Positions 15,911-31,009 of a stretch of 38,116 nucleotides of DNA are shown here, one piece after another. The stretch spans positions 1-38,116 of the IMG/VR virus record IMGVR_UViG_3300014960_000001, one strand, 5' to 3'. The translations under genes and the position numbers were made by a program. The notes beneath the pieces were generated by a model that had not been told where the DNA came from, ran no database searches, and saw nothing but the letters and a program-made list of their open reading frames with translations. The stretch is from a virus. The stretch's first letter is position 1; the number at the start of each line of letters is the position of its first letter.

Positions 15911-16076
15911 TGTCCGGCGTCCGGGTGTCTGTAGACACACCCGGACACGGCGGACAGAATCCTTGGCGGAAATCCGGACAAACCGGACGAATCCGGACAC
16001 AACCGGACACTTAAAGCGGACACTAACCATGCTGTCCGCCTTGTCCGTTTTCGTCCGAATCGGACGTTTCCGGACA
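15911..16076. repeat. Iteron-like array of CCGGAC(A/G) heptamers in both orientations; candidate replication origin
   Basis: Direct copies lie at 15941, 15951(cggaca), 15974, 15983, 15993, 16003, 16016(gcggaca), 16060(tcggacg) and 16070. Inverted copies lie at 15911, 15918, 16033, 16042 and 16052. The four copies from 15974 to 16009 are spaced 9-10 bp apart. Confidence 0.6.
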
Positions 16077-18161
16077 CGCATCGATGCTCAATTCATAGGT
16101 CAGCGTGACGATTCCGGTGCTTGAAACGTTCACAAGATTCTTTGCAATTAGCGCGTCTCTGGTGTCGTAAAAACGGCGTCGGTCTGAAATCCCATGCTCT
16201 TTGCAGGCGTCCTTCCAGTCTTCTACTGTGATGACAGAATCTTCCATGCCATCTTTTGCGCGCCGATAGAAAATCGCTTCAAGAGCCAGGATCGCCTTCC
16301 TTTGATTCTGTTTTAGGCTGGCTAAAACATCCTTTGCCTGATCAACAATCCCGCTGATATCCACCGTCTCCAGCGCGGCGCCGAGAATTTCCTTGCCATC
16401 CTTTCCATGGATCCCGAGGCCGACTTGCTTGATATTGAAACGGCGCTCCAAAGGAATCTCGCCGTCCTTCATCTTCTTGTTGGTGAGGGTGATCATCTTC
16501 GTGCTGTCGTCCATATCGACCATGTATTCCTGATCGAGAGCGCCACGCAGGACGGTGCTGCCTCGGGCTTGTCCAGGGCTGGCCTTGCCGCTGTGATGGA
16601 CCAATAAAACGTGTGCCTTATAAGGCGACCGCAGCAGCGCGTCCAGGTGCTCGACAAAGCGCGCCATATCCGGCGTGCTGTTCTCGTCGCCGCCCATATT
16701 CCTGGCGACCGTATCAACGACGATCAGCGACGGCTGCTGGCCGGTTGATTCCACAATGTCGCGCACTGAATCGGCGACTTCATGGGCGGATGCAATGTCG
16801 AACAGCTGGCAGCTCCGCTGGCTCTTGTAGAAATTGACGCCGGCAAGGTCGGTGTTGTTGTGAATAGCCCAGGCACGCGCGCGCCGAGCGAAGCCGGAAT
16901 GACCCTCGCCGGCAATGTAGATAACGGCGCCCTGCTTCGTCTTGCAACCGTGCCAATCCTTGCCGGTGGCCACGCACAGAGCCATGTCGATCGCCACAAA
17001 CGATTTGCCTTTGCCAGGCTCACCGAAGGCCAAGCCAAGAGCGTCGGCCTCAAGGTAGCCTTCGACAATCCAGTCGATTTCCTTGATCTCTACCGAATCA
17101 ATTCGGATCAGCTCGAACTGGCGCTTGATGGTGGCAACCTCGATGCCAAGGCGCTTGCGTACCTCTTCGATTCCCAATGCCACATGGATGTCGTTCCAGT
17201 CGGTCGGCTTGCCGCTGATGCCTTCGGTATTGGGAACGATGACCTGGCCGCCGACCAATGCCGCGGCATCAGTGGCGTGCTTAACGCCTGGATTTGATCC
17301 ATCGGCATGCCACTGGTCATTGTCGGCCGCCAGAATGACGCGGCTGGTCGGATTGTGCTTGCGAGCGTATTCGGCCGTGCGTTTCAGGTTGCCCGTATCG
17401 AACGCCACATAGACATGGCTTCCTGTGGCTTCGGCCAACGTGGCTCCGGTCGCCCACCCTTCGCAGACATAAACAACCGCGCTGCTGCCGGGTATCTCAT
17501 AAATCCCCTTTGGCAATTGATACCAGTTTTTTTTCTCGCCATCGGGATAAATGCGCTGGATGCTGCACAGTTCGCCGGTTTCATCGTGCATCGGTATCAG
17601 CAGCTCGCCGTCGCCGTTGATCTTGATTCCTGGCGTCATCCGGACGGCCTTGCGCGTCACATAGGGATGGTCTGCCGGTGCTTCGGATGATCGGGCCAGA
17701 ACATCTAACGCCACCTGGATAGCGCTCTCGGCATTGCGCTTGCGCTCTTCCTCGCGCTGCTTCTTGGCATCTTCCATCCGCTTCCTGTTTTCCATCTGCT
17801 CAGAAAGCGAGAGCGTGGAGACAGAGCGCGCGCACCAGCTGGTGGCGATGCCAGTCTCGTAATCGCCGAACGATCCGGCAGGGATTCCATCCGGATAGAA
17901 CACATACCAGCCGTTTTTCTTCTTCGGCTTGCTGACGGTGGCGCACCGGACGATGCGTCCGGTGGCCTCGATGCCGTGCTTGATGACGAGGCCGGCAGCG
18001 GTAGCCGCGCGCTCGAAATCCATGGCGGCATTGAAGGTGCTGACTTCGGCTGGCGACATGGCAACCGAAGATGCCAGGAATCCGCCATTGAAGAATTGGG
18101 TGAGGTCGGTGGTGGACATCATCCGGCCGCCTGACTTGGGAACATGATTTCGCCCTTTCAT
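16023..18161 (-). CDS. Bifunctional primase-helicase (Toprim domain plus RecA-fold/AAA_25 helicase domain)
   Basis: Toprim-like motifs VCEGWATG ... AADND. Walker A motif GEPGKGKS with a DnaB/RepA-like C-terminal half. 712 aa; the start could instead be the MMST methionines. Confidence 0.75.
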   Translation of the reverse strand: MKGRNHVPKSGGRMMSTTDLTQFFNGGFLASSVAMSPAEVSTFNAAMDFERAATAAGLVIKHGIEATGRIVRCATVSKPKKKNGWYVFYPDGIPAGSFGDYETGIATSWCARSVSTLSLSEQMENRKRMEDAKKQREEERKRNAESAIQVALDVLARSSEAPADHPYVTRKAVRMTPGIKINGDGELLIPMHDETGELCSIQRIYPDGEKKNWYQLPKGIYEIPGSSAVVYVCEGWATGATLAEATGSHVYVAFDTGNLKRTAEYARKHNPTSRVILAADNDQWHADGSNPGVKHATDAAALVGGQVIVPNTEGISGKPTDWNDIHVALGIEEVRKRLGIEVATIKRQFELIRIDSVEIKEIDWIVEGYLEADALGLAFGEPGKGKSFVAIDMALCVATGKDWHGCKTKQGAVIYIAGEGHSGFARRARAWAIHNNTDLAGVNFYKSQRSCQLFDIASAHEVADSVRDIVESTGQQPSLIVVDTVARNMGGDENSTPDMARFVEHLDALLRSPYKAHVLLVHHSGKASPGQARGSTVLRGALDQEYMVDMDDSTKMITLTNKKMKDGEIPLERRFNIKQVGLGIHGKDGKEILGAALETVDISGIVDQAKDVLASLKQNQRKAILALEAIFYRRAKDGMEDSVITVEDWKDACKEHGISDRRRFYDTRDALIAKNLVNVSSTGIVTLTYELSIDACPETSDSDENGQGGQHG

Positions 18162-26039: not shown

Positions 26040-26212
26040 GACAGATCCTCGCAGATGCTGCCGTGCTGTTCGTCGTGGCGCTTGGATATTTGGCGGTCAA
26101 CGACAGCTTCGCCACAGACAAAGGCGCGAGAGAGCAGCGGCGGGCTACGGAAATTATGTTTGAAAGCTGCGTGGATAGCTGCCGCCAGGGCTGCGCGAAG
26201 GTGCCGAAATGA
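26036..26212 (+). CDS. Small membrane-anchored Cys-rich protein (58 aa)
   Basis: Translated by hand: MRQILADAAVLFVVALGYLAVNDSF...CVDSCRQGCAKVPK. ATGA overlaps occur at both ends. Confidence 0.4.
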   Translation: MRQILADAAVLFVVALGYLAVNDSFATDKGAREQRRATEIMFESCVDSCRQGCAKVPK

Positions 26213-26538
26213 CCGGCCGCCGCGACTACCACTGGCAGCTCATTCGGATGCTCATGGACGGCGCCCAATTATCTGCTGCGCAGATCACCGAATCATTGGG
26301 CTGCAACCGCGGGAACACCGAGCGGATCATCAACAACATGCACCATCATGGCTTGATTTATGTGATCCGCTACAGCAGCACCGCCACCGCAATTCATCGT
26401 GTGTGGGCGTGGCGTGACGGCGATCAGGAAGATGTGCCGCGGCCAAATCGAGTGAGCAATTCGGATCGGTGCGCGAAGTATCGGTGGAATCAGAAAGTGA
26501 AGGCCGGCGAAGTGCGGCTGGGTGTGTGGGGGCTATGA
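26209..26538 (+). CDS. Winged-helix/HTH-like protein (109 aa) immediately upstream of the methyltransferase
   Basis: The LSAAQITESLGCNRGNTERIINNM segment looks like an HTH. ATGA coupling occurs on both sides. Confidence 0.5.
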   Translation: MTGRRDYHWQLIRMLMDGAQLSAAQITESLGCNRGNTERIINNMHHHGLIYVIRYSSTATAIHRVWAWRDGDQEDVPRPNRVSNSDRCAKYRWNQKVKAGEVRLGVWGL

Positions 26539-27482
26539 ATGAGCTGGCTCTTTTCGCAGGCGCTGGTGGCGGAATACTCGGCGGCCATCTGCTCGGATGG
26601 AGAACCGTCTGTGCCGTCGAGTTCAATTCCTACGCCGCAAGCGTACTGTGCGCCCGACAAAATGACGGAATTCTGCCGCCTTTCCCGATTTGGGATGACG
26701 TTCGCACCTTTGACGGACATCAATGGCGAGGGCGTGTTGATGTCGTTTCTGGAGGCTTTCCATGCCAAGACATCAGCATCGCTGGGGGGGGGGCAGGACT
26801 CTCAGGAGAACGATCTGGACTCTGGGTGGAAATGGCCCGGATCATTGGCGAAGTACGACCCAGCTTCGTGTTCGTGGAAAACTCGCCAATGCTCACTCAT
26901 CGAGGACTTGGCACCGTTCTCGGAGATTTGGCCGAGATGGGGTTTGATGCGAAATGGGGAGTTGTGTCTGCTGCCGATACCGGCGCACCTCACCTCAGAG
27001 AGCGAATCTGGATTGTGGCCGACACCCTGCGCGAACGAGCGGGGGGGGGGAATACACCAGGATCACACCTAAGTTTGACTAAAGCAGTCCACGGATGGAT
27101 CAAAGGGCGACCAGGACAAGCGAGAGAAGAATGCAGAATTCCAACACCAACCGTATGCGGGAATTACAACAGGAAAGGATCGTCACCAACATCGGGCGAC
27201 GGTCTGGCGACGTTCGTCAAGATGTTTCCTACGCCAACCGTAGCGATGACCAAAGGCTCATCGGGGGGGGCAATGACGAGAAAAACAGGACGCAGTCGAT
27301 CGAACGACAGATTGGATTACGCGACGGAAGGAGCGCATCCAGAGAATGGCCGCCTGAACCCGACGTGGGTCGAGTGGCTCATGGGGTGGCCGCAAGGGTG
27401 GACAGACTTAAAGCCCTTGGCAATGGGCAAGTTCCGCGAGTGGCAGCAACAGCATGGCAACTTCTCAGAGGTGAGTGAATGA
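26535..27482 (+). CDS. DNA (cytosine-5) methyltransferase, frame open as assembled (315 aa); reads through three poly-G tracts as Gly runs
   Basis: Motif I FAGAGG, motif IV GFPCQ (26757-26768), motif VI-like FVENS, motif VIII-like HLRERIWIVA. Then come IPTPT/FPTPT modules and the motif IX-like LNPTWVEWLMGWPQGWT. The motif X sequence is not in this frame. Confidence 0.8.
   Translation: MNELALFAGAGGGILGGHLLGWRTVCAVEFNSYAASVLCARQNDGILPPFPIWDDVRTFDGHQWRGRVDVVSGGFPCQDISIAGGGAGLSGERSGLWVEMARIIGEVRPSFVFVENSPMLTHRGLGTVLGDLAEMGFDAKWGVVSAADTGAPHLRERIWIVADTLRERAGGGNTPGSHLSLTKAVHGWIKGRPGQAREECRIPTPTVCGNYNRKGSSPTSGDGLATFVKMFPTPTVAMTKGSSGGAMTRKTGRSRSNDRLDYATEGAHPENGRLNPTWVEWLMGWPQGWTDLKPLAMGKFREWQQQHGNFSEVSE
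26539..27072 (+). CDS. Overprinted +1-frame ORF inside the methyltransferase gene (177 aa as assembled), candidate second protein
   Basis: Its own ATG lies 4 nt after the MTase ATG. The composition is protein-like rather than a typical shadow ORF (Trp/Cys/Phe/Asp/Glu/Lys present, few Arg). It ends in SGLWPTPCA just before tract 2, and the same module recurs in frame 0 downstream. Confidence 0.45.
   Translation: MSWLFSQALVAEYSAAICSDGEPSVPSSSIPTPQAYCAPDKMTEFCRLSRFGMTFAPLTDINGEGVLMSFLEAFHAKTSASLGGGQDSQENDLDSGWKWPGSLAKYDPASCSWKTRQCSLIEDLAPFSEIWPRWGLMRNGELCLLPIPAHLTSESESGLWPTPCANERGGGIHQDHT
26784..26793 (+). repeat. Poly-G tract 1 (G10)
   Basis: Counted directly: gct + 10 g + ca. It lies 15 nt downstream of the PCQ codons. 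Confidence 0.95.
27041..27050 (+). repeat. Poly-G tract 2 (G10)
   Basis: Counted directly: the block 27041-27050 is all g, flanked by c and a. Confidence 0.95.
27083..27478 (+). CDS. Third-frame ORF encoding the methyltransferase motif X C-terminus (ATG at 27095)
   Basis: The frame-2 translation ends ...WPPEPDVGRVAHGVAARVDRLKALGNGQVPRVAATAWQLL, which is the canonical GN.VP motif X context. A TAA at 27080-27082 separates it from the catalytic N-terminal half. Confidence 0.45.
   Translation, partial: SSPRMDQRATRTSERRMQNSNTNRMRELQQERIVTNIGRRSGDVRQDVSYANRSDDQRLIGGGNDEKNRTQSIERQIGLRDGRSASREWPPEPDVGRVAHGVAARVDRLKALGNGQVPRVAATAWQLLRGE
27263..27270 (+). repeat. Poly-G tract 3 (G8)
   Basis: Counted directly: tc + 8 g + c. 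Confidence 0.95.
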
Positions 27483-27556
27483 TCGAATTCATGGCATGGG
27501 TGCTTTTCATGGCCATCTTGTGTTTGGCGCTCTGGCTTTATGTGGTGTGCGAATGA
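27479..27556 (+). CDS. Hydrophobic micro-protein (25 aa)
   Basis: Translated by hand: MIEFMAWVLFMAILCLALWLYVVCE. ATGA-type overlaps occur with both neighbours. Confidence 0.3.
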   Translation: MIEFMAWVLFMAILCLALWLYVVCE

Positions 27557-27720
27557 AGCAGCACGAATACGACGACGACGGTTGCTGCATCCATTGCGGT
27601 TTCGACGGTGCTGAATGGCATTGGTGGAAGACATCCACCTACGAAGGGCGCGCCCTAGCCGGTGAAGAATGCGAACCGGGAGATCGAATCAAAGAACCAG
27701 AATGCGTTGAGCGAAAATGA
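27553..27720 (+). CDS. Small Cys-rich acidic protein (55 aa)
   Basis: MKQHEYDDDGCCIHCGFDGAEWHWW... It is in frame with track ORF 27475..27720. Confidence 0.45.
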   Translation: MKQHEYDDDGCCIHCGFDGAEWHWWKTSTYEGRALAGEECEPGDRIKEPECVERK

Positions 27721-27908: not shown

Positions 27909-28114
27909 TTGATAGCGAAGCGTGGGTGATTATTGTGAGCGTGGTGATAGTCGCTGTCGCAACTGTCGGAGACATCGTGCTTGACGGGTATGGCTGCGTC
28001 AGCAAGTGGGAAGGCAGCGGGCTTGATCCGCAATACAAGGTGTTCGGGGGCTGCACGATTAAGCTGCCGGATGGAAGCAGGATTCCTACCTCTGCCTACA
28101 AGGTGCTGAAATGA
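27905..28114 (+). CDS. Small N-terminally anchored membrane protein (69 aa)
   Basis: MIDSEAWVIIVSVVIVAVATVG... ATGA overlaps occur at both ends. Confidence 0.45.
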   Translation: MIDSEAWVIIVSVVIVAVATVGDIVLDGYGCVSKWEGSGLDPQYKVFGGCTIKLPDGSRIPTSAYKVLK

Positions 28115-28971
28115 TGATCGCCGCCATGAAGCAAGCCCTTGAGGCGTTGGAATGGATGTACGGAGGGGAGCCGTGCAATACAGAAGCGGCAATCACCGCC
28201 ATCCGATCCGCCATCACCGAGGCAGAGAAGTGTGAGCCGGTGGGGTATATCGACGCCGAACAACTGCGCAGGTGGGATGTGTTGCGTGGAACGGAGTATG
28301 AAGTTGCCGAGCGATGTTATATGCCGTGGAGTCGTGTTCCGTTTCGGTCAGATGTGACGGATTGCTCTTTGCCAGTATTTATCTGCCCACCCGTCACGCA
28401 GCAGGAGCCGGTAGTTGATCTGATTAACGCACCCCGCGATAGGTATTGGCATCGCTACACCACCCCACAACCCTGCCCACGGTGCGCGGAGTTGGAAGCG
28501 AAGCTCAAAGAGCAATCGCTATGGTATCTGGCACGCGACACAGAAGCACACGAACTAGCAAATAGGTGCGCGGAATACGCCAAAGACATATTGCGCTTAG
28601 TTGAAACTGTGAAGTATCTGCGCGGCATTGCTGAACGCGGGACAGGTAATGAATGTCCGCCAGATGAAACGGTAGAGCAATTTGTACTTGGGTATGTCAA
28701 GCAGTTGGAAGCACGGTGCGCGGAGTTGGAGGGTATCGCCGAGTATCACTCCGACGCATTCAAACGCGCACACGATGAAGCGGTTGGTTTCAAGAAGAAG
28801 GTCGCGGAGTTGGAAGCCGAGAACGCGGAACTCAGGCGGGACGCGGAGAGGTATCGGTGGCTGCGGGATACGTTGGCGTGGGATGAAAAACTTGACGTGA
28901 TTATCTGTATGCGCCGGTTCGATGAGTGGGATGCCGCCATCGACGCCGCGATGAAGGAGGAAACGAAATGA
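28111..28971 (+). CDS. Coiled-coil protein (286 aa), possibly Ea22-like
   Basis: ORF-track entry with long Glu/Ala/Leu/Arg heptad-like stretches in the C-terminal half. Confidence 0.5.
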   Translation: MMIAAMKQALEALEWMYGGEPCNTEAAITAIRSAITEAEKCEPVGYIDAEQLRRWDVLRGTEYEVAERCYMPWSRVPFRSDVTDCSLPVFICPPVTQQEPVVDLINAPRDRYWHRYTTPQPCPRCAELEAKLKEQSLWYLARDTEAHELANRCAEYAKDILRLVETVKYLRGIAERGTGNECPPDETVEQFVLGYVKQLEARCAELEGIAEYHSDAFKRAHDEAVGFKKKVAELEAENAELRRDAERYRWLRDTLAWDEKLDVIICMRRFDEWDAAIDAAMKEETK

Positions 28972-29896: not shown

Positions 29897-30071
29897 ACTG
29901 ATAGAGCTGACCGGCTACCACACCAGGCCGAAGTGCCTGTCGTGGCTGACGGTCAACGGCTATCGCTACCATGTCGCAAGCGACGGCTGGCCGCGTGTGC
30001 TAAGGTCTGCCGTTGTCGAGCGCCTTGGCGGCAAGCAAGAGGCGCCGGAACCGCAATTGAGGTTCGGATGA
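29877..30071 (+). CDS. DUF4224-like small DNA-binding protein, probable excisionase/recombination directionality factor
   Basis: MFLTRDELIELTGYHTRPKCLSWLTVNGYRY... matches the DUF4224 pattern. It lies directly upstream of, and overlaps, int. Confidence 0.6.
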   Translation: MFLTRDELIELTGYHTRPKCLSWLTVNGYRYHVASDGWPRVLRSAVVERLGGKQEAPEPQLRFG

Positions 30072-31009
30072 AACTTCCTGCGAAGATGCACTTCAAGCAT
30101 GGCGCGTACTACTACGTCCACCAGAACAAGTGGACGAAGTTGAGCCGCGACTATCCGGAAGCACTTCGCAAGTATTCATCGATGGTATCGAGCGTCGGCG
30201 TCGGCATGGAATCCCTGCTGGATCGCTTCCTGTTGCGTCAAACAGGCGAGGTGGCTACCAGCACCTTGGCGGTAAATAGAAACGCCGTGAAGAGGCTAAA
30301 AACCATATTTGCCGAGTTCTCGCCGGAACAGGTGCAGCCAAAGCACATCTTCGCTTTGCGGAACGAATACAAGGCAAAGCCGGCCTGGGCGAATAGGTTC
30401 CTATACGTCCTGAAGGGTGCCTTCAATCTCGCCATCGAGGAAGGATTGATCGTCGCCAATCCGGTGCGGGACGTGACCAACTTGAAAGAAAAGAAGCGCG
30501 ACAGGTACATCACCACCGAGGAATTCAACGCCATCAGGGAACAGGCCAACGAATCCATGAAAGCCATCATGGATGTTGCCTACCTGACCGGCCAGCGCAT
30601 CGGCGATGTTCTGGCGATCAAGCTAAAAGACTTGCGAGAGGATGGGATTTATTTCCGGCAGAGCAAGACCGGCACCGAGCTGATTGTCGGATGGTCGCCG
30701 GAACTGAGGAAGGCCGTGGCGGATGCGAAGCAGATTCATGCTTCGGTGAAGGGATTCTCGCTATTCAGAACGCGCCAAGGCAATCAGCTGGCCTACAGGA
30801 CGGTTCATGACTTCTGGAACAACGCGAGATTAAAGGCTGGCCTGGTGGATTGCAGAATCCACGACCTGAGGGCGAAGGCGGGAACCGACGCCAGGAAGCA
30901 GGGCCAGGACAGCAAGGCGCTGCTCGGCCACAAATCTGACAGCTCACACAATCGCTATATCCGCGATCCGGATGTGCCGATTGTCGAGGCAGTCAGGAAG
31001 AAAACTTAG
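30068..31009 (+). CDS. int: Tyrosine integrase
   Basis: Catalytic signature: R in TGQRIGD, HDLRAKAGT (H-x-x-R), and LLGHKSDSSHNRY (H...Y). 313 aa from the ATG at 30068. Confidence 0.85.
   Translation: MKLPAKMHFKHGAYYYVHQNKWTKLSRDYPEALRKYSSMVSSVGVGMESLLDRFLLRQTGEVATSTLAVNRNAVKRLKTIFAEFSPEQVQPKHIFALRNEYKAKPAWANRFLYVLKGAFNLAIEEGLIVANPVRDVTNLKEKKRDRYITTEEFNAIREQANESMKAIMDVAYLTGQRIGDVLAIKLKDLREDGIYFRQSKTGTELIVGWSPELRKAVADAKQIHASVKGFSLFRTRQGNQLAYRTVHDFWNNARLKAGLVDCRIHDLRAKAGTDARKQGQDSKALLGHKSDSSHNRYIRDPDVPIVEAVRKKT

Follow-up and report, generated by a model that had tools for sequence, protein, structure and literature searches.

Three poly-G tracts in a phage C5-cytosine methyltransferase gene lie at junctions between two overlapping coding frames: a candidate slippage-driven module switch

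Introduction

In the C5-cytosine DNA methyltransferase (C5-MTase) M.HhaI, the large domain comprises motifs I to VIII together with motif X, and the small domain comprises the variable region and motif IX; to our knowledge, motif X is needed in every characterised C5-MTase. Such modules can be carried on two separate chains, and M.EcoHK31I is reportedly a heterodimer of this kind, said to have been described by Lee, Kam and Shaw in 1995. According to two papers on this Escherichia coli C5-MTase (PMC2836561, PMC3404938), its alpha chain contains motifs I-VIII, motif X and the target recognition domain, its beta chain contains motif IX, and both chains are required. M.AquI is another two-subunit C5-MTase, split in the variable region (PMC3404938); one of its subunits has motifs I-VIII and the other has IX-X. 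Here, we analyse a phage C5-MTase gene with three poly-G tracts, found in the IMG/VR virus record IMGVR_UViG_3300014960_000001; the window refers to the whole stretch analysed (38,116 nt, 57% G+C). In contrast to M.AquI, the family to which this gene belongs places motifs I-VIII and X on one chain (alpha) and motif IX on the other (beta), and the two genes overlap fully.

The likeness of the family to M.EcoHK31I is one of layout, not of sequence. [quoted passage not shown] They differ in that beta of the phage family is co-extensive with alpha (the starts lie 4 nt apart and the ends within ~15 nt), and in that this beta has a conserved N-terminal part of ~165 aa overprinted on the catalytic domain, plus PTP modules. 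The family is also phage-borne and orphan, and M.EcoHK31I is not known to have homopolymer tracts where its frames meet.

Simple-sequence repeats within MTase open reading frames (ORFs) are known from phasevarions, where slippage alters methylation stochastically, as in the phase-variable Mod, Type I and Type IIG MTases of Haemophilus, Neisseria, Helicobacter and Campylobacter (PMC4889913, PMC9577141). Those are chromosomal N6-adenine restriction-modification enzymes read in a single frame, in which the out-of-phase product is truncated, whereas the window gene is a phage C5-MTase with two frames and three tracts at module junctions, from which full-length chimeras could arise. Hypermutable polyG tracts have also been reported in Campylobacter phages (Sorensen et al., 2021, Cell Rep 35:109214, cited in PMC12823448). 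These tracts are reported to be phage-encoded, like those of the window, and to create phenotypic heterogeneity in the phage population, but they act in an on/off manner in receptor-binding protein genes and involve neither an MTase nor the joining of overlapping frames. The combination of an overlapping-frame MTase with junction tracts was not described in the open-access text searched, which is a weak negative.

Our preferred reading, to which we give a probability of roughly 0.62, is that the gene of this family encodes a split C5-MTase in two overlapping frames and that the tracts are slippage (contingency) sites re-joining its modules, a source of population heterogeneity and of bet-hedging.

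Poly-G tracts in the window

An earlier note on this DNA, made from the letters alone, had pointed to tracts of G10, G10 and G8 within the MTase gene, and both the run count and a Markov simulation bear this out (Table 1). The three tracts are the only G/C runs of at least 8 nt in the window, the next longest being 5 for G and 6 for C. In a third-order Markov simulation, 0.05 runs of at least 8 nt and 0.003 of at least 10 nt are expected per window, and three G/C runs of at least 8 nt were seen in 0/300 simulations. The note had also held all other homopolymers to be short, which stands for G and C, but it overlooked a T8 at 17527-17534 (A8 on the coding strand) inside the minus-strand primase gene, the sole further homopolymer of at least 8 nt. 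Similarly, its translation of every tract as Gly-Gly-Gly fails for tract 3, which gives two Gly codons (Ser-Gly-Gly-Ala).

A gene family in two overlapping frames

The MTase gene is the only part of the whole window with nucleotide similarity to known phages (75-80% identity), and the hosts of the matching phages include Acinetobacter, Salmonella, Pseudomonas, Ralstonia, Klebsiella, Microcystis, Lacticaseibacillus and Arthrobacter. The family was sampled through four annotated relatives and eighty IMG/VR loci. The analysis of frames covered 85 loci and 84 unique N-terminal halves, and the analysis of tracts covered 86 unique loci.

All four annotated relatives contain two fully overlapping ORFs of 240-300 codons. 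Their alpha begins with MNELALFAGAGGG... and proceeds through motifs I-VIII and a short linker to ...GRVAxGVxxRVDRLKAxGNGQVP, and their beta, in frame +1, begins with MSWLFSQALV... and proceeds through WPTP modules to ...LNPxWVEWLMGWPxGWTDLKPLxMDKFxxW. Frames 0 and +1 are open along the whole gene (240-400 codons) in nearly all of the 85 loci, and frame +2 is closed.

Several observations indicate that beta is under purifying selection as a protein. Over the 163 codons of the unique N-terminal halves, frame 0 has no stop, frame +1 has none in 84/84 and frame +2 has a mean of 9.0; permuting synonymous codons within the sequences introduces a mean of 3.0 stops in frame +1, and a stop-free frame is obtained with P = 0.0245 per sequence. 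The beta ATG, which sits in an Asn-Glu of alpha as AAT GAG, is kept in 82/84 relatives; the alpha start among the 84 is ATG in 43, GTG in 16 and TTG in 16, and 9 have no start codon. Moreover, third positions of alpha codons are fixed for beta at Val114 (GTG in 75/75, beta W), Ala133 (GCC in 70/70, beta P) and Gly136 (GGG in 84/84, beta G), and in 47 conserved four-fold columns the third-position entropy has a mean of 1.21 bits vs 1.5-1.96 pooled. The conserved beta ATG, the stop-free frame +1 and this site-specific synonymous constraint are evidence, of an evolutionary kind, for the translation of beta. The dual-frame constraint on synonymous sites probably also explains why 75-80% nucleotide identity is maintained across phages of unrelated hosts.

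Beta-type proteins number at least 7855 in the database. Among the 120 beta matches listed, none has a Pfam domain and the named ones are all "hypothetical". No family matching beta was found in Pfam or NCBIfam. In PHROGs, beta (phrog_1008) and alpha (phrog_363) form separate families.

Motif IX in frame +1 together with motif X in frame 0, which is the arrangement of the M.EcoHK31I type, is present in 67/85 loci. By analogy with that enzyme, the common state of the family is probably a split alpha + beta enzyme. In the window and 10 other loci ("fused"), motif X instead falls in frame +2 and motif IX shares the frame of motifs I-VIII. The canonical motif order can be read in the distant relative L013 (IMGVR_UViG_3300037067_007801), in which motif IX, the beta tail and then EPEGVPRVAVGIPQRVNRLKAIGNGQVP follow each other within one frame. 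This L013 sequence is GC-rich and has tracts of G9, G10 and G9 at 2035, 2138 and 2362, at positions unlike the family sites; as assembled, both of its frames stop at about codon 244, and a complete I-VIII-IX-X product of 387 aa would require two of the tracts to change. A programmed -1 ribosomal frameshift leading from motif IX to motif X, at the CUUAAAG that follows GWTD, is disfavoured, as it would leave only 2 residues between the motifs, vs ~40 in L013 and 9 in M.HhaI; the conservation of CUUAAAG is, in addition, inseparable from the dual-coding constraint.

The assembled window copy

In contrast to the 67 loci above, the assembled window is without the M.EcoHK31I-type arrangement, alpha(N) being fused to beta(C) and motif X being out of frame. 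The PF00145 match covers only residues 4-162 of the 315 aa (E = 6.5e-32); the profile aligns with motifs I-VIII of M.HhaI, and FAGAGGG, GFPCQ, ENS and RERIWIV are present in the window product. The TIGR00675 match likewise ends at residue 162 and is below the cut-off. The frame-0 product has motifs I, IV, VI and VIII and then IX (VEWLMGWPQGWTD), without X. Its motif IX segment, LNPTWVEWLMGWPQGWTD, is read in frame 0 at 27354-27407, and the small-domain motif IX is thus in the assembled product. Motif X is outside the assembled polypeptide, which ends with DLKPLAMGKFREWQQQHGNFSEVSE. In the 315-aa ORF, alpha-N is joined to beta-C at tract 2, in a chimera devoid of motif X. The 948-bp length given in the earlier note stands, but the gene is not a plain in-frame orphan C5-MTase, with PF00145 reaching only residue 162 and motif X lying in frame +2. 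Should motif X be required, the state seen in the assembly would probably lack full activity. The frame +2 open stretch that contains motif X is reachable from frame 0 via +1 at tract 3.

Recurrence of the tracts across the family

Among the 86 unique loci, 26 G/C runs of at least 8 nt are found in 76.9 kb of the gene vs 1 in 229 kb of flanks, a 78-fold enrichment. At least one such run is present in 22/86 loci, and these runs cluster at three sites. Site 1, at +32/33 nt counted from the start of the motif IV codon, is occupied in the window, L035, L074 and L081. Site 2 is at +278 to +290 nt from the same point, 4-7 codons past motif VIII (window, L006-L011 and L016, with poly-C in L053 and L085). 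Site 3 is 103-109 nt 5' of motif IX (window, L088, L087, L059, L017, L019 and L022). The window tracts occupy exactly these sites, and the window alone among the loci examined has tracts at all three; its closest relative, L088, likewise has a G8 at site 3. The carriers at each site are non-monophyletic and are not mutual nearest relatives; therefore, the sites have been hit repeatedly. Independent relatives also have homopolymers at these three positions, and the tracts are therefore not peculiar to a single assembly, a concern raised in the earlier note.

Where a fused locus has a tract, the alpha(mid-C) frame that goes unused is open from the tract to the gene end, so that one extra base restores alpha and beta. 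In the tract-less fused locus L005, the unused frame is open for the last 40 codons only.

These distributions bear on the idea of a neutral by-product, according to which the MTase is accessory, frameshifts are tolerated and homopolymers drift from mutation pressure with no selected switch. Such drift would agree with near-equal phases (18:16:21, see below), with the many tract-less fused or frameshifted bacterial copies, some of them damaged (motif VIII lost in L091, an internal stop in L089), and with a window copy that expresses the full motif set in no phase. It does not agree with the 78-fold enrichment over flanks at three specific junctions, with uninterrupted tracts persisting across lineages just 83-91% identical, with the recurrence of tract sites on unrelated branches, or with an unused frame retained solely where a tract is present. 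We consider it unlikely.

Length polymorphism and reading phase

Tract length varies between homologous sites and changes the frame relations. At site 2, L053 with C12 has separate alpha and beta, and L085/L086 with C14 in the same place have an alpha-PPPP-beta fusion; at site 3, L017/L019/L022 with G10 are split, and L087 with G9 and identical 12-nt flanks is fused. One clade was followed by a site-2 pattern scan that retrieved 35 IMG/VR and 40 metagenome stretches, of which 55 unique sequences were left after removal of duplicates and non-family sequences. Their tracts are pure, from G9 to G18 (G9 in 1, G10 in 2, G11 in 13, G12 in 14, G13 in 13, G14 in 8, G15 in 2, G16 in 1 and G18 in 1), and the frame relations track tract length exactly. 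Lengths of 3n are fused (18 sequences), lengths of 3n+1 are split into alpha and beta (16 sequences), and lengths of 3n+2 give a beta(N)-alpha(C) chimera with a truncated alpha (21 sequences).

Within this clade, contigs with identical flanks can differ in the tract itself. L164, L182 and L153 have flanks that are 100% identical and tracts of G13, G14 and G18, and L129 and L146, also with 100% identical flanks, have G10 and G12. The former three are the Joint Genome Institute contigs Ga0255071_1000529, Ga0255064_1000876 and Ga0255076_1000276, whose sample numbers are neighbouring and which may belong to a time or space series. Where each flank shares 97% identity or more, 24/27 pairs differ in tract length, a count in which equal-length duplicates are under-represented, since identical records had been collapsed beforehand. 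At site 1, eight IMG/VR contigs with G10 or G11 at the same offset were found, in which the G11 of L134 is out of phase relative to the G10 of L135, with identical flanks; the other seven are in phase. A site-3 pattern scan of IMG/VR retrieved unrelated sequences only. Complete E. coli genomes carrying the gene are just 4, which is uninformative regarding polymorphism. The check for length polymorphism proposed in the earlier note is thus positive in homologues, where lengths vary between near-identical relatives and shift the reading phase.

Could these tracts, or their lengths, be sequencing or assembly errors? In favour of errors, the window comes from a metagenome, as a contig, and the lengths of homopolymers are prone to error. 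Nevertheless, homopolymers occur at the same sites in dozens of independent assemblies, conserved coding sequence flanks the tracts and the frames stay open, and G8-G10 is, as generally known, within the usual accuracy range of short reads. Furthermore, G11 is shared by three IMG/VR contigs that are fully identical, which weighs against pure assembly noise. We therefore regard an artefact as extremely improbable. Two related candidates, G-quadruplex artefacts and two-colour poly-G artefacts of the reads, were rejected, as the tracts are isolated single runs in conserved coding sequence at homologous sites.

Predicted products of slippage in the window

Products were computed for all 27 +/-1 combinations of the three tract lengths. 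As assembled (10, 10, 8), the alpha ATG gives I-VIII-PTP-IX-tail (315 aa) and the beta ATG gives beta(N) (177 aa). A tract 2 of G11 would cut alpha after motifs I-VIII at the TAA of 27080-27082 (182 aa) and would restore a full-length beta of 314 aa. A tract 3 of G9 would yield I-VIII-PTP-X (314 aa) from the alpha ATG, together with the same 177-aa beta(N). At tract 1, losing one G would produce an alpha(I-IV)-beta(N) chimera of 178 aa and a truncated product of 135 aa from the beta ATG, and gaining one would produce a truncated I-IV of 137 aa and, from the beta ATG, a beta(N1)-alpha(VI-VIII)-beta(C) chimera of 314 aa. Since tract 1 slips in either direction part motifs I-IV from VI-VIII, they would break the catalytic domain.

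Past tracts 1 and 3, neither frame is interrupted; past tract 2, one frame is fully open and the other almost entirely. Slippage with two open frames downstream would therefore swap modules rather than merely truncate. The earlier note had proposed a hypermutable MTase switch, and for the relatives this idea is supported by their variation in tract length and phase, although the predicted slips would swap modules rather than act in a simple on/off manner.

Indeed, a plain ON/OFF switch of the phasevarion type would have the 948-bp ORF as an active orphan MTase that any slip truncates. The presence of tracts of at least 8 nt inside an ORF with motifs I-VIII fits such a switch, as do the several slips that truncate the product from the alpha ATG. 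However, the assembled ORF lacks motif X and takes its C-terminal half from the other frame, full-length alternatives of 313-315 aa would arise from slips at tracts 2 and 3, and both downstream frames are kept open in relatives, making this explanation quite improbable.

Another alternative places the slippage in expression and not in the DNA, with transcriptional slippage or ribosomal frameshifting giving each genotype a fixed fused:split ratio, like dnaX or the tail chaperone G/GT. The G run reads as Gly in every frame, two downstream frames are open, and one genotype would supply alpha, beta and the fusion, which would resolve the absence of an all-motif phase in the window. In contrast, the length differences between contigs are heritable and at the DNA level, and efficient RNA polymerase slippage is generally documented for A/T runs, not for G/C runs. 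We find recoding very unlikely. The window copy may, as an alternative to the states computed above, depend on slippage during expression or on re-initiation at the ATG of 27095.

Proposed mechanism

Returning to the split enzyme with contingency tracts, the mechanism would be as follows. Alpha (frame 0) would provide motifs I-VIII, a linker and motif X, and beta (frame +1) its conserved N-terminal part, motif IX and the PTP modules; as in M.EcoHK31I, alpha + beta would probably form the active enzyme. The tracts would act at three junctions, namely past motif IV, past motif VIII at the boundary between the large and small domains, and ~35 codons 5' of motif IX. A homopolymer reads as Gly (or Pro) in any frame, and with two open frames on both sides a one-base slip could link a module of alpha to one of beta without a break. 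Replication slippage at the tracts, which we infer for the window phage as well, would make the phage population mixed for MTase form and activity, depending on which phases are active. These mixed forms could confer a selective benefit as bet-hedging versus host restriction or methylation-dependent defence.

A more elaborate version is that the gene is frameshift-proof in its two frames and that each tract is a programmed three-state switch between split enzyme, single-chain fusion and swapped chimera. We regard this version as possible but doubtful.

Several points weigh against the proposed mechanism and call for caution. None of the 27 +/-1 combinations expresses motifs I-VIII, IX and X together in the window. 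Between tracts 2 and 3, frame 0 alone is fully open, frame +1 being closed and frame +2 having the TAA at 27080-27082, and the window copy may be partly decayed. AlphaFold gives a predicted local distance difference test (pLDDT) score of 80-95 for the catalytic half, 33-57 for the C-terminal half of the window fusion and 51 for beta alone; these low-confidence models of beta and of the fusion C-terminal half provide no structural support for an alpha-beta complex. The evidence for length variation comes from other phages, as the window has no relative above 64% amino acid identity. This is the identity of the closest protein match to the window product (P0001 being a singleton), the closest beta match has 57%, exact-protein look-ups returned no record, and megablast against INPHARED found no close relatives of the window phage. 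The window tracts (G8-G10) also fall short of G11-G14, the lengths usual in the polymorphic clade. Part of the spread of tract lengths could be technical, homopolymers being error-prone in sequencing and assembly. Finally, the phases are about equal in frequency, which fits a contingency locus and also an absence of selection on phase.

Genomic context and annotation

The window is a temperate phage, with an integrase gene downstream of the MTase (Table 1). A Sak4-like annealing protein, a Cas4-type exonuclease and a helicase are encoded 5' of the MTase, and a tail fibre and the primase elsewhere in the window. Three neighbouring ORFs (26209-26538, 27475-27720 and 28111-28971) have no PHROG family match; therefore, no recognisable restriction enzyme is found among those three ORFs.

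The TGA (26536-26538) of the upstream ORF at 26209-26538 overlaps the alpha start and abuts the beta start. An upstream ORF of at least 40 codons ending at this start-junction TGA is found in 42/81 relatives, and many of the listed loci have, 5' of the alpha start, a GGAGG resembling a Shine-Dalgarno sequence. This layout suggests that both starts may be served from one initiation/coupling site. The upstream genes ending at the TGA of NTGAATG are unrelated to each other, encoding an adenine methylase, a helix-turn-helix protein and hypothetical proteins, so that the two starts would occupy a conserved junction of termination and re-initiation.

Gene callers choose alpha, beta or a chimera near-arbitrarily, and the family is consequently mis-annotated on a large scale. 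In the Pseudomonas phage phPA-G (L004, PP083311 23175-23903), the beta frame alone is annotated, as "hypothetical protein", and in ABMM1, S9-5 and MW202462 (L001-L003) the alpha frame alone is annotated. PGAP has named the cross-frame chimeras P0018, P0053 and P0081 "DNA cytosine methyltransferase".

Some prophage copies are altered. That of E. coli PCP07014 (L089, NZ_CM129871 2951116-2951877) has an internal stop and a pseudogene flag, and adjacent stops hit both of its frames at one spot (alpha ...SPLLV*IGL, beta ...CLFE*DLQ). The copy of a Pseudomonas chlororaphis prophage (L091/L092, P0053) adjoins an integrase and is fused, with motif VIII deleted and the motif X frame intact in +2; it looks like a recent deletion derivative.

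Table 1. Positions of the MTase gene features and of other genes in the window (frames relative to the alpha ATG).
Feature	Position	Strand	Frame	Description
Dual start ATGAATG	26535-26541	+		alpha ATG at 26535, beta ATG at 26539
Assembled ORF	26535-27482	+	0	ATG to stop, 948 bp, 315 aa; alpha(I-VIII) to tract 2, then beta content (PTP modules, motif IX, tail)
beta(N) ORF	26539-27072	+	+1	177 aa, starts MSWLFSQALVAEYS, includes SGLWPTPCANERGGG; nested in the alpha catalytic half, ends just past tract 2
Motif I, FAGAGGG	26553-26573	+	0	
Motif IV, GGFPCQ	26751-26768	+	0	catalytic Cys
Tract 1, G10	26784-26793	+		33 nt past the start of the motif IV codon; Gly in frames 0 and +1; family hot spot 1
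Motif VIII, RERIWIV	26997-27017	+	0	
Tract 2, G10	27041-27050	+		7 codons past motif VIII; in-frame alpha(N)/beta(C) junction; family hot spot 2
TAA	27080-27082	+	+2	single frame +2 stop past tract 2; would cut alpha to I-VIII if tract 2 gained one G
Open stretch, 131 codons	27083-27478	+	+2	alpha(mid-C) and motif X, ending ...EPDVGRVAHGVAARVDRLKALGNGQVPRVAATAWQLL; first ATG at 27095
Tract 3, G8	27263-27270	+		109 nt (~35 codons) 5' of motif IX; family hot spot 3
Motif IX, VEWLMGWP	27369-27392	+	0	beta frame in relatives
Motif X, LGNGQVP	27416-27436	+	+2	alpha frame in relatives; overlaps the beta tail DLKPLAMGKF
Integrase	29933-31009			
Primase/helicase	16023-18161	-		contains the T8

Biological significance

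Phase-variable MTases of bacteria and a split C5-MTase from overlapping frames (M.EcoHK31I) were both known, and the two ideas are combined here in a very large phage gene family. Full dual coding makes homopolymer slippage productive and not destructive, and natural populations contain all three phases. Provided that these differ in activity, the gene would be a phage-borne stochastic switch of DNA modification, relevant to the escape from restriction and from methylation-dependent defences. Were the doubtful three-state version true, one genotype would keep spawning progeny with different MTase forms, possibly with different activities or specificities, and this would represent a phage-borne, combinatorial form of epigenetic bet-hedging, of which the window would be the most elaborate case among the loci examined.

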